A DNA stretch of 30,714 nt from Verrucomicrobiota bacterium (GTDB lineage Bacteria > Verrucomicrobiota > Verrucomicrobiia > Opitutales > Seribacteraceae): NCBI GenBank assembly GCA_027622665.1, contig JAQBYT010000046.1:1-30714 (forward strand), given 5' to 3'. Under the pieces are notes generated by a model. It made no database searches. It saw only the letters and a list, made by a program, of their open reading frames with translations, and was not told the DNA's origin. Below are positions 23 to 30,714 of this stretch, piece after piece. The position numbers and the translations under genes were made by a program. The first letter of the stretch is position 1; every line of letters starts with the position of its first letter.

Positions 23-470
23 TCACGCGGCCTCGCGATGGTAGTAGTTTAGCAGCCCGCCGACGCGTCTGCGCCTCCGCACGCCGGCGTCCGACTTCGG
101 TGGTGGTGGTTCTGATAGCAGCCGGTTCTCCAGACCCTGGTGGTTGCGCTCCCGGTGGTAGTGTTCGACGTACTCGCGAACCAGAAGTCGCAGGTGGCGT
201 TCGCCCAGCACGACCACACGGCTCAGACATTCATTCTTGATCGAGCGAACAAACCGCTCGGCGTAGGCATTCAGATTTGGGCTCCTCGGCGGCAGCTTGA
301 TAGGCGTCACGCCGCTGCTCTTCAAGATCTCCGCAAACTTGATGGTGAACAGCGGATCCCGATCGTGGATCAGATGTGTTGCGTCCCGCAGGAACCCGTC
401 GAAGGCGTCGGTCAGGTTCCGCGCAGTCTGTTCCATCAGCTCGCCGTATGGCTGGTGATGGATGCCCGCT
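23..470 (-). mobile_element. C-terminal part of an integrase-core (rve-type DDE) transposase
   Basis: LIHDRDPLFT, PPRSPNLNAYAERFVRSIKNECL, YVEHYHRERNHQGL and GGLLNYYHREAA are typical integrase-core motifs. The N-terminal part is absent. Confidence 0.85.
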
Positions 471-751
471 TCGTGGAGCATGCGGTCGAAAATGGTGTCC
501 TCGTAGATGGTCCGGTTCTGGACCGCTCCCTTTTCCTTGTTCCACACGATGCGCTGGTGCTGTTCGAATCTGCGGAAGAGAAGGTAGAGTTGCATCATTG
601 CGCCCCAGCGGTTCATGTCCTCATAGAAGTCGGACAAGTAGGGGTTGTCATCCACGGGCTCGTTGAAGGCCTCGTAGCCGAGGTGCTCGGCAAGTTGTTG
701 GGAGAGGGTGGACTTTCCCGCCCCGATGATTCCGGCAATTCCGATGAACAT
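461..751 (-). pseudogene. N-terminal fragment of a deoxynucleoside kinase (dNK family), fused in frame to an integrase fragment
   Basis: P-loop GIIGAGKST, EPVDDNPYLSDFY, MQLYLLFRRFEQH and a QNRTIYED motif (canonically DRS/T). Similarity stops at about aa 97, so the C-terminal half with the lid region is missing. Confidence 0.85.
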
Positions 752-9422: not shown

Positions 9423-9989
9423 TTAAAGGTTCCCGTTTATCAAAAGTCCCAGAATGGTGTTGGGGATTATCTGGGCTTGGGCCAACACCGCGACTGATCC
9501 TTGGTATCGAATGTTGTGTTTGGCCAAGGCGCTTGCCTCGGCGGCCATGTCCAAGTCCATTATCCGTCCCTCCGCAGCTTCGGTCGCAATCATCCTCCTG
9601 CTGTTCTCGTCCGTCTCTTTTTCCAGACGCTGTACGTTGGCGGCGGCTTGGGATAGTGCACGGGTCAGGCAATCGATCACGTGGTCGATCTCTTTGAGGG
9701 CACTTTGGGCGTTGGACACGGTTTTCAGGTCGTATCCGGAGAAAAGGGGCAGGTTCACGGCGGTGAGGTTCACTTCCGTGCCGAAACCGTCCGAAAGCAC
9801 GCTGAAATCCTTATCGTTGGACTCGGGCAGGATCTCGATGCTGTGCTCCCACTCGGTTACGTTAGGCGTGAGGTTGATGTCGGATACCGTGGCTCCTCCC
9901 TCGTTTCGGTAGTGTTGCAAGAGATATGTTTGGGCAATCGATTCGAAAACGAAATGCCGGTCGTTCAGGTGAAACAGGAAATGCCGCGT
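9423..9989 (-). pseudogene. 5'-truncated flagellin-family gene (C-terminal domain only)
   Basis: AQSALKEIDHVID, AANVQRLE and AAEGRIMDLDMAAEASALAKHNIRYQGSVAVLAQAQ match the flagellin C-terminal domain. The frame is closed upstream by TAG at 9990-9992 and no N-terminal domain is present. Confidence 0.85.
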
Positions 9990-25038: not shown

Positions 25039-25116
25039 GAGAATTTTGTAATATCGCTCCTGTTCTGGAGTCATCCCCATCGCATCGGCCCGGCATCCCG
25101 GACAACGTCTCGGACT

Positions 25117-25685
25117 GGATTGCCACGCCCTACGAGCTCGCAACTACAGCATTATGAGAGTCATCCCTAAACCGTGTCTTGACCCAGCTCGCACTTTGTC
25201 ATTGCAAGGAGCGAAAGCGACGCGGCAATCCGGCGACCGCTTTGGGTATTCCATCGCATCGTCCCAGAATCCCGCACAACGCCCCGGACTGGATTGCCAC
25301 GCCCTAACGGGCTCGCAATGACAGCATTGTGGGAGGCGTCTTCGAGTCGTGATGCTACCCACCATCCCACCTTGTCATTGCGAGGAGGGGCAAAGCCCCG
25401 ACGCGGCAATCCAGCGGAACCATTAGGCAACGCCCTCCATCACCTTGGCAACCCAGTCATCCCACACCTTGTCATTGCGAGGAGGAACAACGTCCCGACG
25501 CGGCAATCCGGCGACCGCTTTGGGTATTCCATCGCATCGTCCCAAAATCCCGCACAACGCCCCGGACTGGATTGCCACGCCCTAACGGGCTCGCAATGAC
25601 AGCATGGTGGGAGGCGTCTTCGAGTCGTGATGCTACCCACCATCCCACTTTGTCATTGCGAGGAGCGAAAGCGACGCGGCAATCC
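25117..25685. repeat. REP/BIME-like cluster of seven palindromic units
   Basis: Type A units (TGTCATTGC(G/A)AGGAG...CGACGCGGCAATCC) start at 25197, 25373, 25470 and 25651. Oppositely oriented type B units (GGATTGCCACGCCCTA...CTCGCAATGACA) start at 25117 (degenerate), 25291 and 25569. Confidence 0.9.
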
Positions 25686-25800
25686 AGCGAACGCGTAGGT
25701 CACCTCTTGCAATGTCCGGTCATCTCCAACGATTCTTTCCCTAACGCGCGCATTGTAACTAATTGACCTCCTACGCTATTCGGGCATCATTTCATCCAAG

Positions 25801-28800
25801 GTGATCTCATTTGCCGAAAAAAGTTCCCGATCCCTCGCTCGCCTCCTTGCGGTTGGCCTGCTTCTGCTCGGATTGGTCTCCACTGCACATGCGGACCTCA
25901 CCGCCGGCCTAGTCGCCTACTATCCCTTCGACGGCAACGCCTCCGATATGTCGGGGAATGGGAATGACGGGACGGTCAATGGAGCGACGCTAGGGGCGGA
26001 CCGTTTTGGAGAGGCAGGGAAGTCGTACGACTTCGATGGTAACGATTATCTCTCTTTTGGGGACAAGCAGGACTTTGATATGGGAACGGGCGATTTCACC
26101 ATATCCGCTTGGATCAAGACCTCATCTTCCTCACGAGGGGAAATAACCAACAAAGGATCCAATGTTTCCAACACGGGCTATAATACTTTCGTTATGCCCT
26201 CCGGAGTTCTCGCCATCGAGATTCATGATAACTATGCCGCTTTTTCCACCGCAACGGTTAACAATGGTCAATGGCGCCATGCCGTGGGGATGCGCGACGG
26301 GGACAACTTGAATCTGTTTGTCGATGGTGTCGCCGATGGCTCAAGAACCGGAGTCAATAACTATGAAGTCAGTGCATCGAATCAATTTTACGTCGGTTCG
26401 AGGGAGGCAACCTCTCCTTTTTTCAACGGCTCCATCGACGAGTTCCGCGTCTACAACCGGGCCCTTTCCGCAAACGAGGTGACGGCCTTGTACCAGTTGG
26501 AAAGCACTCCACCGCCGAACCAAGCCCCCGCCTTTGCCGAAAGCAACGCCACTTTCACCACCGCCGAGAACAATGCCTCTGCCAGCTTCGTTGTAAGTGC
26601 GACGGATACCGACGCGAACACGACCTTGGTCTACGCAAAGTTCGGGCCCGACGCGGGCAAGTTCACCCTCAACATAGCCACAGGAGCACTCACCTTCACC
26701 AACACGCCCGATTACGAGGCCAACGCCTCCGCCGCCGGCAATAATGCTTTCTCCCTAACCATCAAAGTAACCGACGGCGAAGCCAACGCCACCCAAGCGG
26801 TCACCGTCAACGTGACGAATTTGTTGGAGACCGTTCCACCTTTGATCTCTATTCCTGCCGGAGTTTACGAGAGCAACTCCACCTCCGTGGCCTCGGGACT
26901 CGAGGTGGCTCTTTCGGCTTTTTCAATCGAGGCTCACGAGATGCCTTTGTTCCTCTGGAATGAAGTCTACCTATGGGGTACGCCGAACGGCTACGCTTTC
27001 TCCAATGCCGGCTTGGCTTTCAGCCCCGATCACCCGGTCCATTCGGTCAACTGGTATGACGTTGTGAAATGGGCCAATGCCCGTTCCGAGAAGGAAGGGC
27101 TGACTCCGTGTTACTACACCGACGTCAATCGTACCCGAGTCTACCGTTCAGGCCAAGTCGACGTCACCAACATGATGGTCAAGTGGAGCGCCGATGGCTA
27201 CCGCCTTCCCACTGAGGCTGAATGGGAAGTGAGCGCGCGAGGCGGCTTGGTCGCCAATAACTACGCTTGGGGCAATTCGCCCTCCACCAGCAACGCCAAT
27301 TACCTCGCTGCCGGGCTCGGCCAAACGGTTCTCTCGGGAAGTTACAATCCCAATGGCTACGGTTTGCGCGACCTGGGCGGCAACCTCAGGGAATGGGTCT
27401 GGGATTTGAATAATTCGCATTTTGGTCACGATTTCGTTTATTCAAATACCACTGCAAATTCCTTGTCAGCCATTTTTGATGAAGTGAACTCCTCGGCCAT
27501 CTATGTGCCGGAAACAAACGGCTTTCAGCCTTTCTTTGAAAGTACTTATTCTCTCTCCGAAGTGGTGAAAAGCAGCATGAGTTTCTCTTTGGCCAAGACC
27601 TTGAATTTCGACCCGGCTGCTCAAATCGGCAGTGTAACAAATCAAATAGCAAATAAACGTGCCAGTGGTGGTTATCCCGCTCAATGTAAAATGAAATTTT
27701 ATTATATTGATGGCACTTCGGCTGAAAGTACGACTCATGGCCATGAATCGTCTCCGTGGTCTTGGGGAACAAAGTCATACGCCAACCCCAATACTGATAA
27801 GCTGGTATCCAAGATAGAGGTGTTTCTTAAGAAGAATTACAACCAATCGGCTTGGGGTACTTTTGAGAGAAATACAAGAGTCTACGGGCTTCACTATGAA
27901 GATAATACAGGACACCTGACCTTTGACTTGCCTCAATATGAAGAAAGCAATGCCACGCATTTTTTTGTGAAAGTAGATGCTGTCAGTGAGAATGGTGATG
28001 ATATTTGGTTTGAGTTGATCGATGGCTCGAGCGTGGCAACTTTTTCAAATGATGATTTTGGCCAGAGGCTTCCTTTGCCTGTAAATGTTTTAATTCCAAA
28101 GCAGCTTCGGATTTATCTCAAAAGGTCTGCCCAAAATAATTCTGTGGGAGGCTTGTCCGTAAGTTCAGTTTCTTGGAATGTTGATAATCCCAAAGCTTTT
28201 GCTTCAACTTCTTCTAAACGTGTGGTTAGAGACAACCACTTTGGCGAAAATCTTAAAACCCTCAATCATCGAAGTTTCTTCAATCCAAATGAGGCTAACT
28301 CTACTATTGGGTTCCGCTTGGTCAGAAGGCTCGCGCCCAACCAACCTCCCGTTTTTGCCGGCGGCTCCACCTTCACCACGGCCGAAAACAATGCATCGGC
28401 CAGTTTCGTCGTAACCGCGACCGATCCCGATGCGAACACAACCTTGGTCTACTCCAAGTCCGGGCCCGACGCGGGCAAGTTCACCCTCAACGTAGCCACG
28501 GGAACCCTCACATTCACCAATACGCCCGACTACGAGGCCAACGCCTCCGTCGCCGGCAACAATGCTTTCTCCCTAACCATCACCGTAACCGACGGCGAAG
28601 CCAACGCCACGCAGAGCGTAACCGTCAACGTGACGAACATGGTGGAAGACTTCGACCAAGACGGCATCGATGATCACTTCGACACCGATGACGATGGCGA
28701 CGGATTCAGCGACACCGCCGAGATTGCCTATGGATCGGACCCGAGGAACGCGAACTCGGTGGCCAACCAAGCGCCCACGGCGCTCGATCTCAACAATACA

Positions 28801-30714
28801 ACCATCGCAGAGAATCAACCTGCGGGAACGATCGTGGGCAAGTTAACCGGAGTCGATCCGGATGGAAATGCGACCTTGGCTTTTTCCCGAGCCAATGGCC
28901 AAGGATCCAAGCACAACAACCAGTTTTTCGTCGGCCCCCACAATAACTTGAAAGCCAAGAACCCGATTGATTTCGAAGCCAACGCCACCTTGACGGTCCG
29001 CCTCAAAGTGAGAGACGAGCACAACGCAAGCTACGAAAAGATCTTCCAGATTACTGTTCTTAACATAGTCGAAGACCTAGACTCCGACGGCATCGAGGAT
29101 CATGCCGACCCCGACGACGACAACGACGGCTTCAGCGACGCGGAGGAGCTGGCTGCTGGTACGAATCCCGACGACAACGCGAGCATCCCCAACCGGGCCC
29201 CGACCGACATCCTGCTGCCGACCAACGTCATCCTCGAGAACCGGCCCGTCGGCACCTTGGTGGGCACCTTGTCCGCAGTCGATCCGGACTTCGGGGCATC
29301 TCACGGATATTCCTTTGCAGGCATGAACGCTAGCATCGTTACCCACAATCCTTTGGTTGCTTATGGTATCGATACCGTGGTCGAGGTTAACGGAACTCTT
29401 TGGAAAGCACTCGTGGACTTGTCGCCACAGGGCATACACAACCCTGCGACGAATTATGCGCTTGGAAATCGTGTTACAAATGGGCAAGGCCGGTACTACG
29501 AAGCCAAGATGGATTTTCAGAATGCTCCTGTCTGGGCTTCTCACTCATGGTACGAAGCGAGTACGATAGTTTCATACCAAGGAAACTTCTATCTTTCCAA
29601 ATCCTATCACAAGACCAAGACGCCAACCACCCGTCCCGATTATTGGGATTTGGTCGACTTGACGCTTGTGGGAACCGCTTGGGAAAACGTAACTGCAAAC
29701 GCCATGCCCGGCGGTTCATTTTGGTCATCTTTCGATCCTCCTTACAAGAATCACCTCTTCACCCTTGACGCCAATGGCACCTTAAAGACCGCCGCTATCC
29801 TCGACCACGAGACCAACGCCTCACGAACCATTCGCGTCCAGGCCACCGACGAACACAACGCAAGCATCGAACAAACCTTCGTCATTACCGTTCTGGATGA
29901 TCCTGCCGACAACAACACAAGCCAAGTAGTAGACGACAACGGAACGATCCCTGATCAAAACGGAACCGTCGTCGATTCCAATGGCACCTACGTCGATGAC
30001 AATGCAACAGTACCCGACGGGAACGGAACTTTCGTCGATACGAATGCAACTTTGCCCGACAACAACGCAACCCTGCTGGATACCAACGGGACTTTCGTGG
30101 ATGACAATGCAACAGTACCCGACGGGAACGGCACCCATGTAGACACGAACGGAACTTTACCTGATTCAAATGCGACTGTCCCTCATCCGACACCCTCCGA
30201 TCAGAACGAAACGATTGTGGAACCGCATGAACCTCACCCCGATGCGAACGGAACCGTTCTGGGTCAGAACGGGACTTTCGTGGATCATAACCAAACGCAC
30301 ATTGATACGAACGGCACGATTCCTAACACGAACGCAACTTTACCTGATTCAAATGCGACTGTTCCGGATCCGAGTACGACACCCCCCGACCAGAACGAAA
30401 CGATTGTGGAACCGCATGAACCTCACCCCGATGGGAACGGAACCGTTCCGGATCAGAACGGGACTTTCGTGGATGACAATGCAACAGTACCCGACGGGAA
30501 CGGCACCCATGTAGACACGAACGGAACTTTACCTGATTCAAATGCGACTGTCCCTGATCCGACACCCTCCGATCAGAACGAAACGATGGTGGAACCGCAT
30601 GAACCTCACCCCGATGGGAACGGAACCGTTCCGGACCAAAATGGGACTTTCGTGGATCATAACCAAACGTACGTGGATACGAACGGCACGATTCCAGACA
30701 CGAACGCAACTTTT
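25801..30714 (+). CDS. Giant surface or adhesin-like protein (LamG, cadherin-like x4, FGE/SUMF1-like, TSP3-like, CBM5/12-like, sequon repeats), 3'-incomplete
   Basis: Manually translated frame with no stop from GTG 25801 to the window end (1638 codons); upstream in-frame TAA at 25756. Signal peptide ending in AHA; GLVAYYPFDGN and FNGSIDEFRVYNRALS; GYRLPTEAEWE, GNLREWVWD and GFRLVR; PDYE and DFE cadherin motifs; DFDQDGIDD. Confidence 0.93.
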   Translation, partial: MISFAEKSSRSLARLLAVGLLLLGLVSTAHADLTAGLVAYYPFDGNASDMSGNGNDGTVNGATLGADRFGEAGKSYDFDGNDYLSFGDKQDFDMGTGDFTISAWIKTSSSSRGEITNKGSNVSNTGYNTFVMPSGVLAIEIHDNYAAFSTATVNNGQWRHAVGMRDGDNLNLFVDGVADGSRTGVNNYEVSASNQFYVGSREATSPFFNGSIDEFRVYNRALSANEVTALYQLESTPPPNQAPAFAESNATFTTAENNASASFVVSATDTDANTTLVYAKFGPDAGKFTLNIATGALTFTNTPDYEANASAAGNNAFSLTIKVTDGEANATQAVTVNVTNLLETVPPLISIPAGVYESNSTSVASGLEVALSAFSIEAHEMPLFLWNEVYLWGTPNGYAFSNAGLAFSPDHPVHSVNWYDVVKWANARSEKEGLTPCYYTDVNRTRVYRSGQVDVTNMMVKWSADGYRLPTEAEWEVSARGGLVANNYAWGNSPSTSNANYLAAGLGQTVLSGSYNPNGYGLRDLGGNLREWVWDLNNSHFGHDFVYSNTTANSLSAIFDEVNSSAIYVPETNGFQPFFESTYSLSEVVKSSMSFSLAKTLNFDPAAQIGSVTNQIANKRASGGYPAQCKMKFYYIDGTSAESTTHGHESSPWSWGTKSYANPNTDKLVSKIEVFLKKNYNQSAWGTFERNTRVYGLHYEDNTGHLTFDLPQYEESNATHFFVKVDAVSENGDDIWFELIDGSSVATFSNDDFGQRLPLPVNVLIPKQLRIYLKRSAQNNSVGGLSVSSVSWNVDNPKAFASTSSKRVVRDNHFGENLKTLNHRSFFNPNEANSTIGFRLVRRLAPNQPPVFAGGSTFTTAENNASASFVVTATDPDANTTLVYSKSGPDAGKFTLNVATGTLTFTNTPDYEANASVAGNNAFSLTITVTDGEANATQSVTVNVTNMVEDFDQDGIDDHFDTDDDGDGFSDTAEIAYGSDPRNANSVANQAPTALDLNNTTIAENQPAGTIVGKLTGVDPDGNATLAFSRANGQGSKHNNQFFVGPHNNLKAKNPIDFEANATLTVRLKVRDEHNASYEKIFQITVLNIVEDLDSDGIEDHADPDDDNDGFSDAEELAAGTNPDDNASIPNRAPTDILLPTNVILENRPVGTLVGTLSAVDPDFGASHGYSFAGMNASIVTHNPLVAYGIDTVVEVNGTLWKALVDLSPQGIHNPATNYALGNRVTNGQGRYYEAKMDFQNAPVWASHSWYEASTIVSYQGNFYLSKSYHKTKTPTTRPDYWDLVDLTLVGTAWENVTANAMPGGSFWSSFDPPYKNHLFTLDANGTLKTAAILDHETNASRTIRVQATDEHNASIEQTFVITVLDDPADNNTSQVVDDNGTIPDQNGTVVDSNGTYVDDNATVPDGNGTFVDTNATLPDNNATLLDTNGTFVDDNATVPDGNGTHVDTNGTLPDSNATVPHPTPSDQNETIVEPHEPHPDANGTVLGQNGTFVDHNQTHIDTNGTIPNTNATLPDSNATVPDPSTTPPDQNETIVEPHEPHPDGNGTVPDQNGTFVDDNATVPDGNGTHVDTNGTLPDSNATVPDPTPSDQNETMVEPHEPHPDGNGTVPDQNGTFVDHNQTYVDTNGTIPDTNATF
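26518..26826 (+). repeat. Cadherin-like coding repeat, copy 1
   Basis: Highly similar in DNA to 28339..28647, for example the shared CGGGCCCGACGCGGGCAAGTTCACCCTCAAC. Confidence 0.9.
28339..28647 (+). repeat. Cadherin-like coding repeat, copy 2
   Basis: Direct repeat of 26518..26826. Confidence 0.9.
29908..30714 (+). repeat. Coding 21-nt (7-aa) tandem repeat D-x-N-x-T-x-x with a 372-nt higher-order repeat
   Basis: DDNGTIP DQNGTVV DSNGTYV DDNATVP and so on; 30085..30341 recurs at 30457..30713. Confidence 0.95.

Follow-up and report, generated by a model that had tools for sequence, protein, structure and literature searches.

A dense natural array of D-x-N-x-S/T sites in a surface protein of marine Opitutales is a predicted acceptor for a PglB-type oligosaccharyltransferase

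The closest described counterpart of the system reported here is the Pgl pathway of Campylobacter jejuni and C. lari, in which PglB (GT66; PDB 3RCE, 5OGL, and 6GXC), a single-subunit enzyme of the STT3 family, modifies exported and membrane proteins at the extended acceptor sequon D/E-X-N-X-S/T, where X is not Pro (PMC8728485). Four tandem DQNAT repeats have been used as a synthetic glycotag (PMC7857678), and in a synthetic tandem tag ten of ten sequons were fully occupied by C. jejuni PglB when extra PglB was supplied (PMC8728485); thus, closely spaced sites can be filled. Bacterial homologs of PglB were assigned by a survey from 2015 to the epsilon- and deltaproteobacteria and the Aquificae (PMC4894442), and the Desulfovibrio enzymes DgPglB and DmPglB have altered motifs (WWDWG and DGGR) and relaxed specificity at the −2 position (bioRxiv 10.1101/2024.08.12.607630). 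In the PVC superphylum, the S-layers of anammox bacteria are O-glycosylated (PMC5088730; bioRxiv 10.1101/2020.12.03.409086), and the PVC glycoproteins that we found described in the accessible texts are O-linked. The main texts of the literature searched yielded no report of N-linked glycosylation by an oligosaccharyltransferase in Verrucomicrobiota and none that links a PglB-type gene to a sequon-loaded surface proteome; in its accessible part, one paper (PMC4973528) mentions Verrucomicrobia a single time, with regard to tree labels, and its supplementary trees may list such homologs. Here we describe a contig of 30,714 nucleotides (“the window”; JAQBYT010000046.1 of assembly GCA_027622665.1) from a member of the Seribacteraceae (Verrucomicrobiota; Opitutales), at the end of which a gene for an exported surface protein runs into a tandem array of D-x-N-x-S/T sites (29908..30714). 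Our analysis indicates that, very probably, this array is a set of dense acceptor sites for a PglB-type oligosaccharyltransferase, encoded by a near-core gene of this marine family; if so, it probably forms an N-glycosylated stalk.

The array spans 269 codons of the plus strand, in frame with the open reading frame (ORF) at 25801-30714, which runs off the end of the contig (C42), so that the array continues beyond it. Among its 36 Asn residues, 34 lie in N-x-S/T; an initial annotation of the window had come close with 33, having missed an overlapping N-N-T at the start. Our recount agrees with the rest of its description: Asp stands at −2 in 31 of the 34 sequons, most sequons follow one another at 7 residues (25 of 33 intervals), and Pro never occupies −1 or +1, although it makes up 31 of the 269 residues. 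Over 10,000 composition-preserving shuffles, the extended motif occurred 0.94 times on average and at most 7 times (31 observed), and N-x-S/T occurred 6.3 times on average and at most 14 times (34 observed). The dense array is confirmed as a real sequence feature. Both codons are used for Asp, both for Asn, and all four for Thr, and 8 different residues are found at −1, 4 at +1, and 7 at +3. Because synonymous codons vary for D, N, and T while the residues in between change, selection appears to act on those three amino acids. The view that all other repeat positions vary thus holds for −1 and +1 but not for +3 and +4, which are confined to hydrophobic, aromatic, or Pro residues and so do not vary freely (+3 is V, I, F, L, H, Y, or M in 31 of 31 units). 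The array is acidic, with 46 D/E residues and no Lys or Arg. It also contains a 372-bp internal duplication and a 183-bp period present in 3.1 copies, and the 31 tabulated units include 14 distinct 5-mers; the array is thus partly the product of recent duplication, and its 31 sites do not represent 31 independent events. Nor are the sites limited to the array, a point that the initial annotation missed: the preceding 1369 residues hold 35 sequons, of which 25 have D/E at −2, mostly 4 to 5 per cadherin domain. The Atlas database match for the array (0.85; Campylobacterota is recorded for one member) is no more than a lead.

The initial annotation had proposed that such a repeat implies a PglB-like pathway. 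A search of this genome (G000; 4.5 Mb, 93.5% complete) bore this out, finding an intact gene for a PglB/STT3 homolog of 1086 aa at G000:C43:2660-5920 on the minus strand. The enzyme scores 71.9 bits against PF02516 (STT3 N-terminal; cutoff, 24.5) and 74.7 bits against PF21436 (STT3-PglB core; cutoff, 23), has 10 helices in a simple hydropathy scan, and finds its closest solved relatives in the C. lari PglB structures (E value, 5e-43). Residues were mapped through a profile of 107 homologs, with numbering counted from the printed alignment. The catalytic residues D123, R218, D225, D227, E451 (TIRE), and R529 map to D56, R147, D154, D156, E319 (TIXE), and R375 of C. lari, and these positions are conserved in 106 to 107 of the 107 rows. 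The positions that bind the +2 Ser/Thr are kept as W630-G634 (WWDYG) and I746 (the equivalent of I572), and H651 is the equivalent of C. lari H485. In known PglB, R331 forms a salt bridge to the −2 Asp (PMC4894442); its equivalent here is R463, 12 residues after E451 just as R331 is 12 residues after E319, and this position is Arg in 100 of the 107 rows. Among the neighbors of the strict −2 pocket of C. lari (named in bioRxiv 10.1101/2024.08.12.607630), two of three are kept (I323 as I455 and L374 as L528) and V327 is replaced by Thr; the residue before R463 is Asn and is not acidic. The donor-sugar site is altered, with S635 for Y468, a residue with a role at that site (PMC7226087), and TSPA for DGGK. 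The Y468 position holds Ser or Thr in the 19 printed rows from this part of the enzyme tree and Tyr in both rows of the Campylobacter branch. In that tree (FastTree, 107 rows), the family enzymes group with proteins named from Pedosphaera, Limisphaerales, and Verrucomicrobiales, apart from the branch that holds the Campylobacter cluster (SH 99). The tree is midpoint rooted and most of its rows are unnamed (of 30 clusters looked up, only 3 carried an organism name), so we make no claim about the origin of the enzyme or about the donor and direction of any gene transfer. Two further features of the family enzymes are an insert with C-x-C-x-x-C that follows R463 and an extension of ~200 aa at the C terminus; the extension scores as LysM in the relative P0077 and perhaps ties the enzyme to peptidoglycan. 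Some of them are already annotated in databases as STT3 or PglB-like, so the gene itself was not hidden. Pieces of pglB are covered by contigs of four marine metatranscriptomes; those runs were found with that same gene and may hold DNA, and they are not counted as evidence of expression.

The enzyme thus resembles Campylobacter PglB as a single-subunit STT3-family protein with the same catalytic residues, and its predicted targets are likewise exported and membrane proteins that carry the D/E-X-N-X-S/T sequon, with Pro excluded. It differs in belonging to another phylum and a separate branch of the tree, in its length (1086 versus ~712 aa), in the Cys-containing insert and C-terminal extension, and in its Ser and TSPA replacements; moreover, it has no adjacent pgl locus, and its genome encodes proteins with up to 80 sites and natural tandem arrays of more than 30. 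The Desulfovibrio enzymes are likewise non-Campylobacter bacterial oligosaccharyltransferases with altered motifs, but the proteome described below points to a strict acidic −2 rule here, and an Asn precedes R463 whereas an Asp precedes R375 in DmPglB. The synthetic DQNAT glycotags share with the array the head-to-tail arrangement of extended sequons in an unfolded segment; they are engineered and short, whereas the array occurs in nature, comprises 31 sites or more, and differs at the X positions from unit to unit.

If the enzyme acts on this motif, the motif should be common where a periplasmic enzyme can reach it, and the initial annotation had suggested comparing secreted with cytoplasmic proteins. 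Among 3556 mechanically called ORFs, we counted 1658 extended sites; control motifs, ten in all and either permuted or altered, gave 517 to 971. Dense runs of sites numbered 10, compared to 0 for the control motifs. Proteins were sorted by hydropathy rules rather than by a trained predictor, and the class figures leave out 37 proteins with at least 5 sites (30 signal bearing and 7 probably misclassified as having no signal). The fraction of D/E at −2 was raised in membrane proteins (0.197; background, 0.107) and in lipoprotein-like proteins (0.204; background, 0.124), as it was in the giant surface proteins; in the no-signal class it was not (0.121; background, 0.115). A cruder split had given 0.159 for the no-signal class before the 7 site-rich proteins were moved out. 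The enrichment of acidic residues was seen at −2 only. Taken as a whole, the proteome points to an enzyme that keeps the strict acidic −2 rule.

Comparisons between matched proteins gave a similar picture. A Trp-rich C-terminal domain that is shared by many surface proteins (see below) marks one such set: the Trp-rich-domain proteins of this genome have 434 extended sites in 46,534 aa (33 ORFs), and those of other genera of the family have 223 in 17,887 aa (31 ORF ends), whereas those outside the family have 13 in 42,332 aa (37 ORFs from 10 genomes with no pglB match), the family set having been chosen by closeness to the query and being, to that extent, imperfectly matched. Cadherin-like domains hold 157 extended sequons in 64 domains here and 152 in 57 domains of relatives (2.5 to 2.7 each in the family), compared to 1 in 31 domains outside it. 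A 764-aa membrane protein encoded upstream of pglB has sites at three alignment columns, which are occupied in 35, 24, and 32, respectively, of its 36 full-length orthologs in the family, with D and E, and S and T, interchanged among them. The 22 orthologs from outside the family are shorter, their alignment covers chiefly the C-terminal half, and they contain a single site in 12,727 aa. Together, these comparisons address a structural cause of the motif and, at the level of sequence, argue against it, as the motif appears to track pglB and export class. Along with the shuffles and the codon variety, they also favor the initial proposal that the repeat was selected as a dense acceptor array.

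The enzyme has a narrow distribution. It was found in 22 of 24 relatives from the same family and in 0 of 16 genomes from other families of the order, in 42 of 51 genomes of a wider sample of the family, and, as weak and distant matches, in 2 of 300 other genomes of the phylum. Its homologs carry the labels Opitutae or Opitutales, and the records behind 53 genomic loci bear the titles Opitutales, Opitutia, Opitutae, Puniceicoccaceae, or Verrucomicrobia. “Candidatus Chordibacter forsetii” is among them and is assigned by NCBI to “Candidatus Seribacteraceae”; orthology and gene order suggest that G000 belongs to this family too. The Seribacteraceae are, we presume, the family also called MB11C04. 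MB11C04 cells have been described as mostly single and as rising in spring blooms (PMC8857213). A DNA pattern of three close D/E-x-N-x-T sites followed the same lines, occurring in 18 of the 24 relatives and in 0 of the 16 genomes of other families, with a reversed control at zero. In the phylum sample this triple-site pattern matched 6 of 300 genomes, none with a credible array: the match in G301 reads as a Pro/Thr stalk in another frame, and the other five, going by the matched sequences as printed, are repetitive DNA of a simple kind in which stops interrupt the frame, the units are irregular, or the period is not a multiple of three. Among the relatives searched, the Seribacteraceae alone carry both a PglB-type enzyme and such motifs, and the confinement of both to this family makes a dense sugar coat probable. 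In another Verrucomicrobiota family, two genomes (G115:C81 and G193:C165; L146-L149) have an STT3-like gene that is only distantly related and encodes ~710 aa, and both lack the triple-site pattern.

Homologs show where the array sits. In close relatives (L169, L170, and P0392-P0395), it is followed by an FN3-like domain and then by the Trp-rich C-terminal domain. In a 32-row alignment, the slot between the last cadherin domain and the FN3-like domain is empty in some rows and in others holds either a TSP3 repeat or a stretch that is rich in sequons and differs in sequence; this linker is absent or short in most homologs, and array length ranges from none to more than 270 aa. By sequence comparison, then, the array is shown to be a linker that homologs may lack and that varies in length, placed between the last cadherin and a C-terminal module with FN3-like and Trp-rich parts. 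The Trp-rich domain (L170:1-330, minus strand) is ~90 to 100 aa in length, has a well-predicted beta-hairpin fold, and ends many surface proteins of the Seribacteraceae, with 34 matches in this genome and occurrences in 10 of 38 other genomes searched. It matches no Pfam family, its Atlas matches are all below 0.9 and fall in unnamed Verrucomicrobiota clusters, and its position makes it a candidate anchoring or sorting domain. A search of G000 for the continuation of the cut surface protein found none; the best C-terminal-module match of this genome is 47% identical, compared to 79% between close relatives. Elsewhere in the family, sequon arrays of unrelated sequence and period (7, 8, or irregular) have in common only the D/E-x-N-x-S/T motif, and arrays of differing sequence are found in several genera and proteins, including a lipoprotein tether. 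The protein P0399 has a period-7 N-A-T array with no acidic residue at −2 in most of its units, which may point to a system of relaxed specificity elsewhere.

The role of D-x-N-x-T might instead be structural, as a Ca2+-binding loop or an Asx-turn from which a beta-solenoid or a metal-bound linker of the TSP3 type is built, with glycosylation incidental or absent. The spacing of D-1/N-3/T-5 does resemble the ligand spacing of DxDxDG loops, and TSP3-type D-x-D-x-D-G repeats (PF18884), which are Asp rich and occur twice upstream in this protein, fill the same linker slot in many homologs; the −2 residue of many cadherin sites is a Ca-binding acidic residue, and the hydrophobic or Pro residues at +3/+4 would suit a structural repeat. 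However, the array has Asn at 3, Thr at 5, and something other than Gly at 6, and the Gly after the third ligand that TSP3 repeats require is absent, as Gly never follows T; the array has no PF18884 match of its own, the Pfam TSP3 stretches all lying upstream. Nor do the differing periods and sequences of the arrays, a linker that is missing or short in most homologs, the same folds lacking the motif outside the family, and a motif that follows pglB and export class fit a structural role well. AlphaFold2, run on the homolog L170 with the 32-row alignment, predicted the cadherin, FN3-like, and Trp-rich parts at a confidence (pLDDT) of ~90 to 97 and the array at <50 with no secondary structure. 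Fold searches with this model returned cadherin and FN3/Ig matches only and barely covered the array and the Trp-rich domain. AlphaFold2 may overlook solenoids when few sequences cover a repeat, and only ~4 of the 32 rows cover this one, so that a solenoid is unlikely, though possible. (A single-sequence AlphaFold2 model of 29071-30714 was set aside because its mean pLDDT was 36 and even the cadherin was unfolded.) Taking all of this together, we regard a structural repeat as very improbable.

It is also conceivable that the family glycosylates scattered sites and that the array arose recently from one or two of them by tandem amplification, is partly occupied, and was not selected as a stalk. 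The 372-bp and 183-bp duplications and the wide range of array length fit such an origin, and a single chromosomal copy of pglB limited occupancy in engineered E. coli (PMC8728485). Amplification alone does not readily account for units that have diverged everywhere except at D, N, and T, whose codons show synonymous changes, or for differing arrays in several genera and proteins, the lipoprotein tether among them, and we think this origin unlikely. Finally, a cytoplasmic N-glycosyltransferase of the HMW1C/NGT type, rather than PglB, might modify the sites by adding sugars singly. Enzymes of this type modify N-x-S/T in large adhesins. We found no HMW1C_N (PF18071) match in G000, but the control genomes were silent too; the acidic −2 rule and the unenriched no-signal proteins fit a periplasmic PglB, which is present, and the chance that a cytoplasmic enzyme is responsible seems slight. 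We therefore hold with high confidence, on this comparative evidence, that the sites of the array are PglB acceptor sites; if they are, a role as a stalk is likely, by analogy with mucin-like stalks.

Several observations weigh against that conclusion. R331 is also kept in relaxed PglB enzymes (PMC4894442), so R463 alone does not fix the −2 rule, and the enzyme is not a member of the Campylobacter PglB equivalog family NF050801 (196.6 bits; NCBIfam cutoff, 1300). In signal-bearing proteins other than the membrane and lipoprotein-like classes, D/E at −2 was barely raised (0.139 versus 0.121; P = 0.02), and one conserved site of the 764-aa protein directly abuts a predicted membrane helix. The way in which the family Trp-rich set was chosen belongs here as well. 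No glycan-synthesis genes were recognized next to pglB in G000, and only 22 of 51 relatives yielded a PglK-like gene, with 26 candidates scored per genome. The triple-site pattern is missing from 6 of the 24 relatives and from the genome of L102. Conversely, two fragmented drafts lack a pglB match and still have sites: G016 (91% complete) has a protein stretch with 12, and G002 (51% complete) has the triple-site pattern. Enzyme and motif co-occur in one lineage, which amounts to one evolutionary event, and we draw no statistic from it. Lastly, the support comes from sequences and models, and the glycopeptide, the glycan, and the activity of the enzyme are all predicted.

In G000, two genes for membrane proteins precede pglB and one for a surface protein follows it, an order that ORF sizes repeat in related loci. 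The product of the gene directly downstream is an FG-GAP protein in which 35 sites follow one another at period 8. Two contigs (G000:C43:3-2435 and C57:21098-22582, both minus strand) end in the same period-8 array and are probably halves of one gene broken by the assembler. The pair directly upstream of pglB across the family (L002:5979-9984, minus strand, on G000:C43) comprises the 764-aa membrane protein and a 573-aa coiled-coil protein with an N-terminal membrane segment. Neither gene has a Pfam match; by eye, the pair resembles MotA/TolQ/ExbB and ExbD-like partners, and the 764-aa protein has orthologs in pglB-negative families.

Candidates for the flippase and glycosyltransferases that the initial annotation had proposed to look for were found elsewhere in the genome, in a scan that covered 58 of 169 listed ORFs. 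Contig C13 encodes a PglK-like ABC transporter (best NCBIfam match, 310 bits; cutoff, 1000), a small PF02397 phosphoglycosyltransferase, a PF02719 dehydratase, a DegT-family aminotransferase, a GNAT acetyltransferase, and GT4 enzymes. These genes may feed PglB or could equally serve an O-antigen or capsule. At L141 (G000:C40:7819-9898), PseB and PseI score above their cutoffs for pseudaminic acid synthesis, and pseudaminic acid is a possible further source of surface sugar.

By analogy with Campylobacter, the surface protein would be exported by Sec, its signal peptide implying passage through the periplasm, where PglB acts. A lipid-linked glycan would be supplied by one of the surface-polysaccharide loci of the genome, flipped (the PglK-like ABC transporter is one candidate for this step), and moved en bloc to the Asn residues in the periplasm. 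The glycan may differ from that of Campylobacter, since Y468 and DGGK are missing from the enzyme and its gene has no pgl locus beside it. If mucin-like linkers are a guide, the glycosylated linker would become a bottle-brush, extended, hydrated, and shielded from proteases, and would keep the LamG/FGE/cadherin head off the cell as an N-linked counterpart of the O-glycosylated Pro/Thr stalk. Like Pro/Thr-rich mucin-like stalks, the array is a low-complexity linker between head and anchor, and like the anammox S-layers it would represent dense surface glycosylation in a PVC group; in those systems, however, the sugars are O-linked to Ser/Thr, whereas the selected motif here centers on Asn. A pglB-negative Opitutales protein (G301) has a plain Pro/Thr stalk. 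A broader hypothesis, which we offer tentatively and consider somewhat less than probable, is that this free-living family rebuilt its surface proteome around one oligosaccharyltransferase, with hundreds of sites gained in folded domains and in independently grown arrays, giving an N-glycan coat and bottle-brush stalks. The enzyme would then be a PglB branch that keeps a strict −2 rule, lacks the Tyr and DGGK that grip the 2-acetamido sugar, and transfers a donor that Campylobacter PglB rejects, possibly from variable O-antigen-like loci.

If these predictions hold, a bloom-associated marine family has PglB-type N-glycosylation at a density far above the 2 to 10 sites of engineered carriers, with a bearing on how its cells meet phages, grazers, and algal polysaccharides. 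For glycoengineering, which is limited by donor range and by how fully sites are occupied, the family would also offer a dense acceptor scaffold from nature and a branch of enzymes whose donor site has changed. The acceptor rule could be read from genome sequence alone.

The domain layout of the surface protein is given in Table 1.

Table 1. Predicted parts of the sequon-rich surface protein, with positions in the window
Feature	Positions	Strand	Remarks
Gene for exported surface protein, at least 1638 aa, cut by contig end	25801..30714	+	56 D/E-x-N-x-S/T sites in all
Sec-type signal peptide	25801..25893	+	Basic start, hydrophobic core, A-H-A end; read by eye
LamG/concanavalin A-like domain (PF13385)	26035..26481	+	E value, 4.5e-29
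Cadherin domain 1	26515..26832	+	5 extended sequons; boundaries set by us
FGE-sulfatase-like domain (PF03781) with AT-rich insert	26833..28338	+	6 extended sequons
Cadherin domain 2	28339..28656	+	4 extended sequons
Bacterial TSP3 repeat (PF18884)	28657..28770	+	No sequons
Cadherin domain 3	28771..29076	+	4 extended sequons
Second TSP3 repeat	29077..29190	+	1 extended sequon
Last cadherin domain, split by Trp-rich insert	29191..29898	+	4 extended sequons
Array of D-x-N-x-S/T sites	29908..30714	+	31 sites; predicted unfolded

Two of these domains are interrupted. The AT-rich insert in the FGE-sulfatase-like domain (27424-28215, plus strand; ~265 aa) has a GC content of 0.40 to 0.42, compared to 0.55 to 0.60, contains 2 extended sequons, has no Pfam match, and looks like a swapped variable module. 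The Trp-rich insert in the last cadherin domain (29299-29760, plus strand) gives a weak CBM5/12 match (E value, 6.5e-4) that falls under the cutoff. The intergenic region upstream of the surface-protein gene (25110-25700) contains a duplicated block of ~290 bp and several near-identical short palindromic elements, which we take to be REP-like.

Two further ORFs of the window are irregular. At its start, a chimeric ORF (23-751, minus strand) joins the N-terminal half of a deoxynucleoside kinase (PF01712) to a fragment of an integrase core (PF13683) and looks like either a kinase gene that a mobile element has disrupted or, at this end of the contig, a join made during assembly. At 9423-9920 (minus strand), a flagellin C-terminal region (PF00700) stands alone, with the upstream frames closed by stops, and is a truncated or partial gene.

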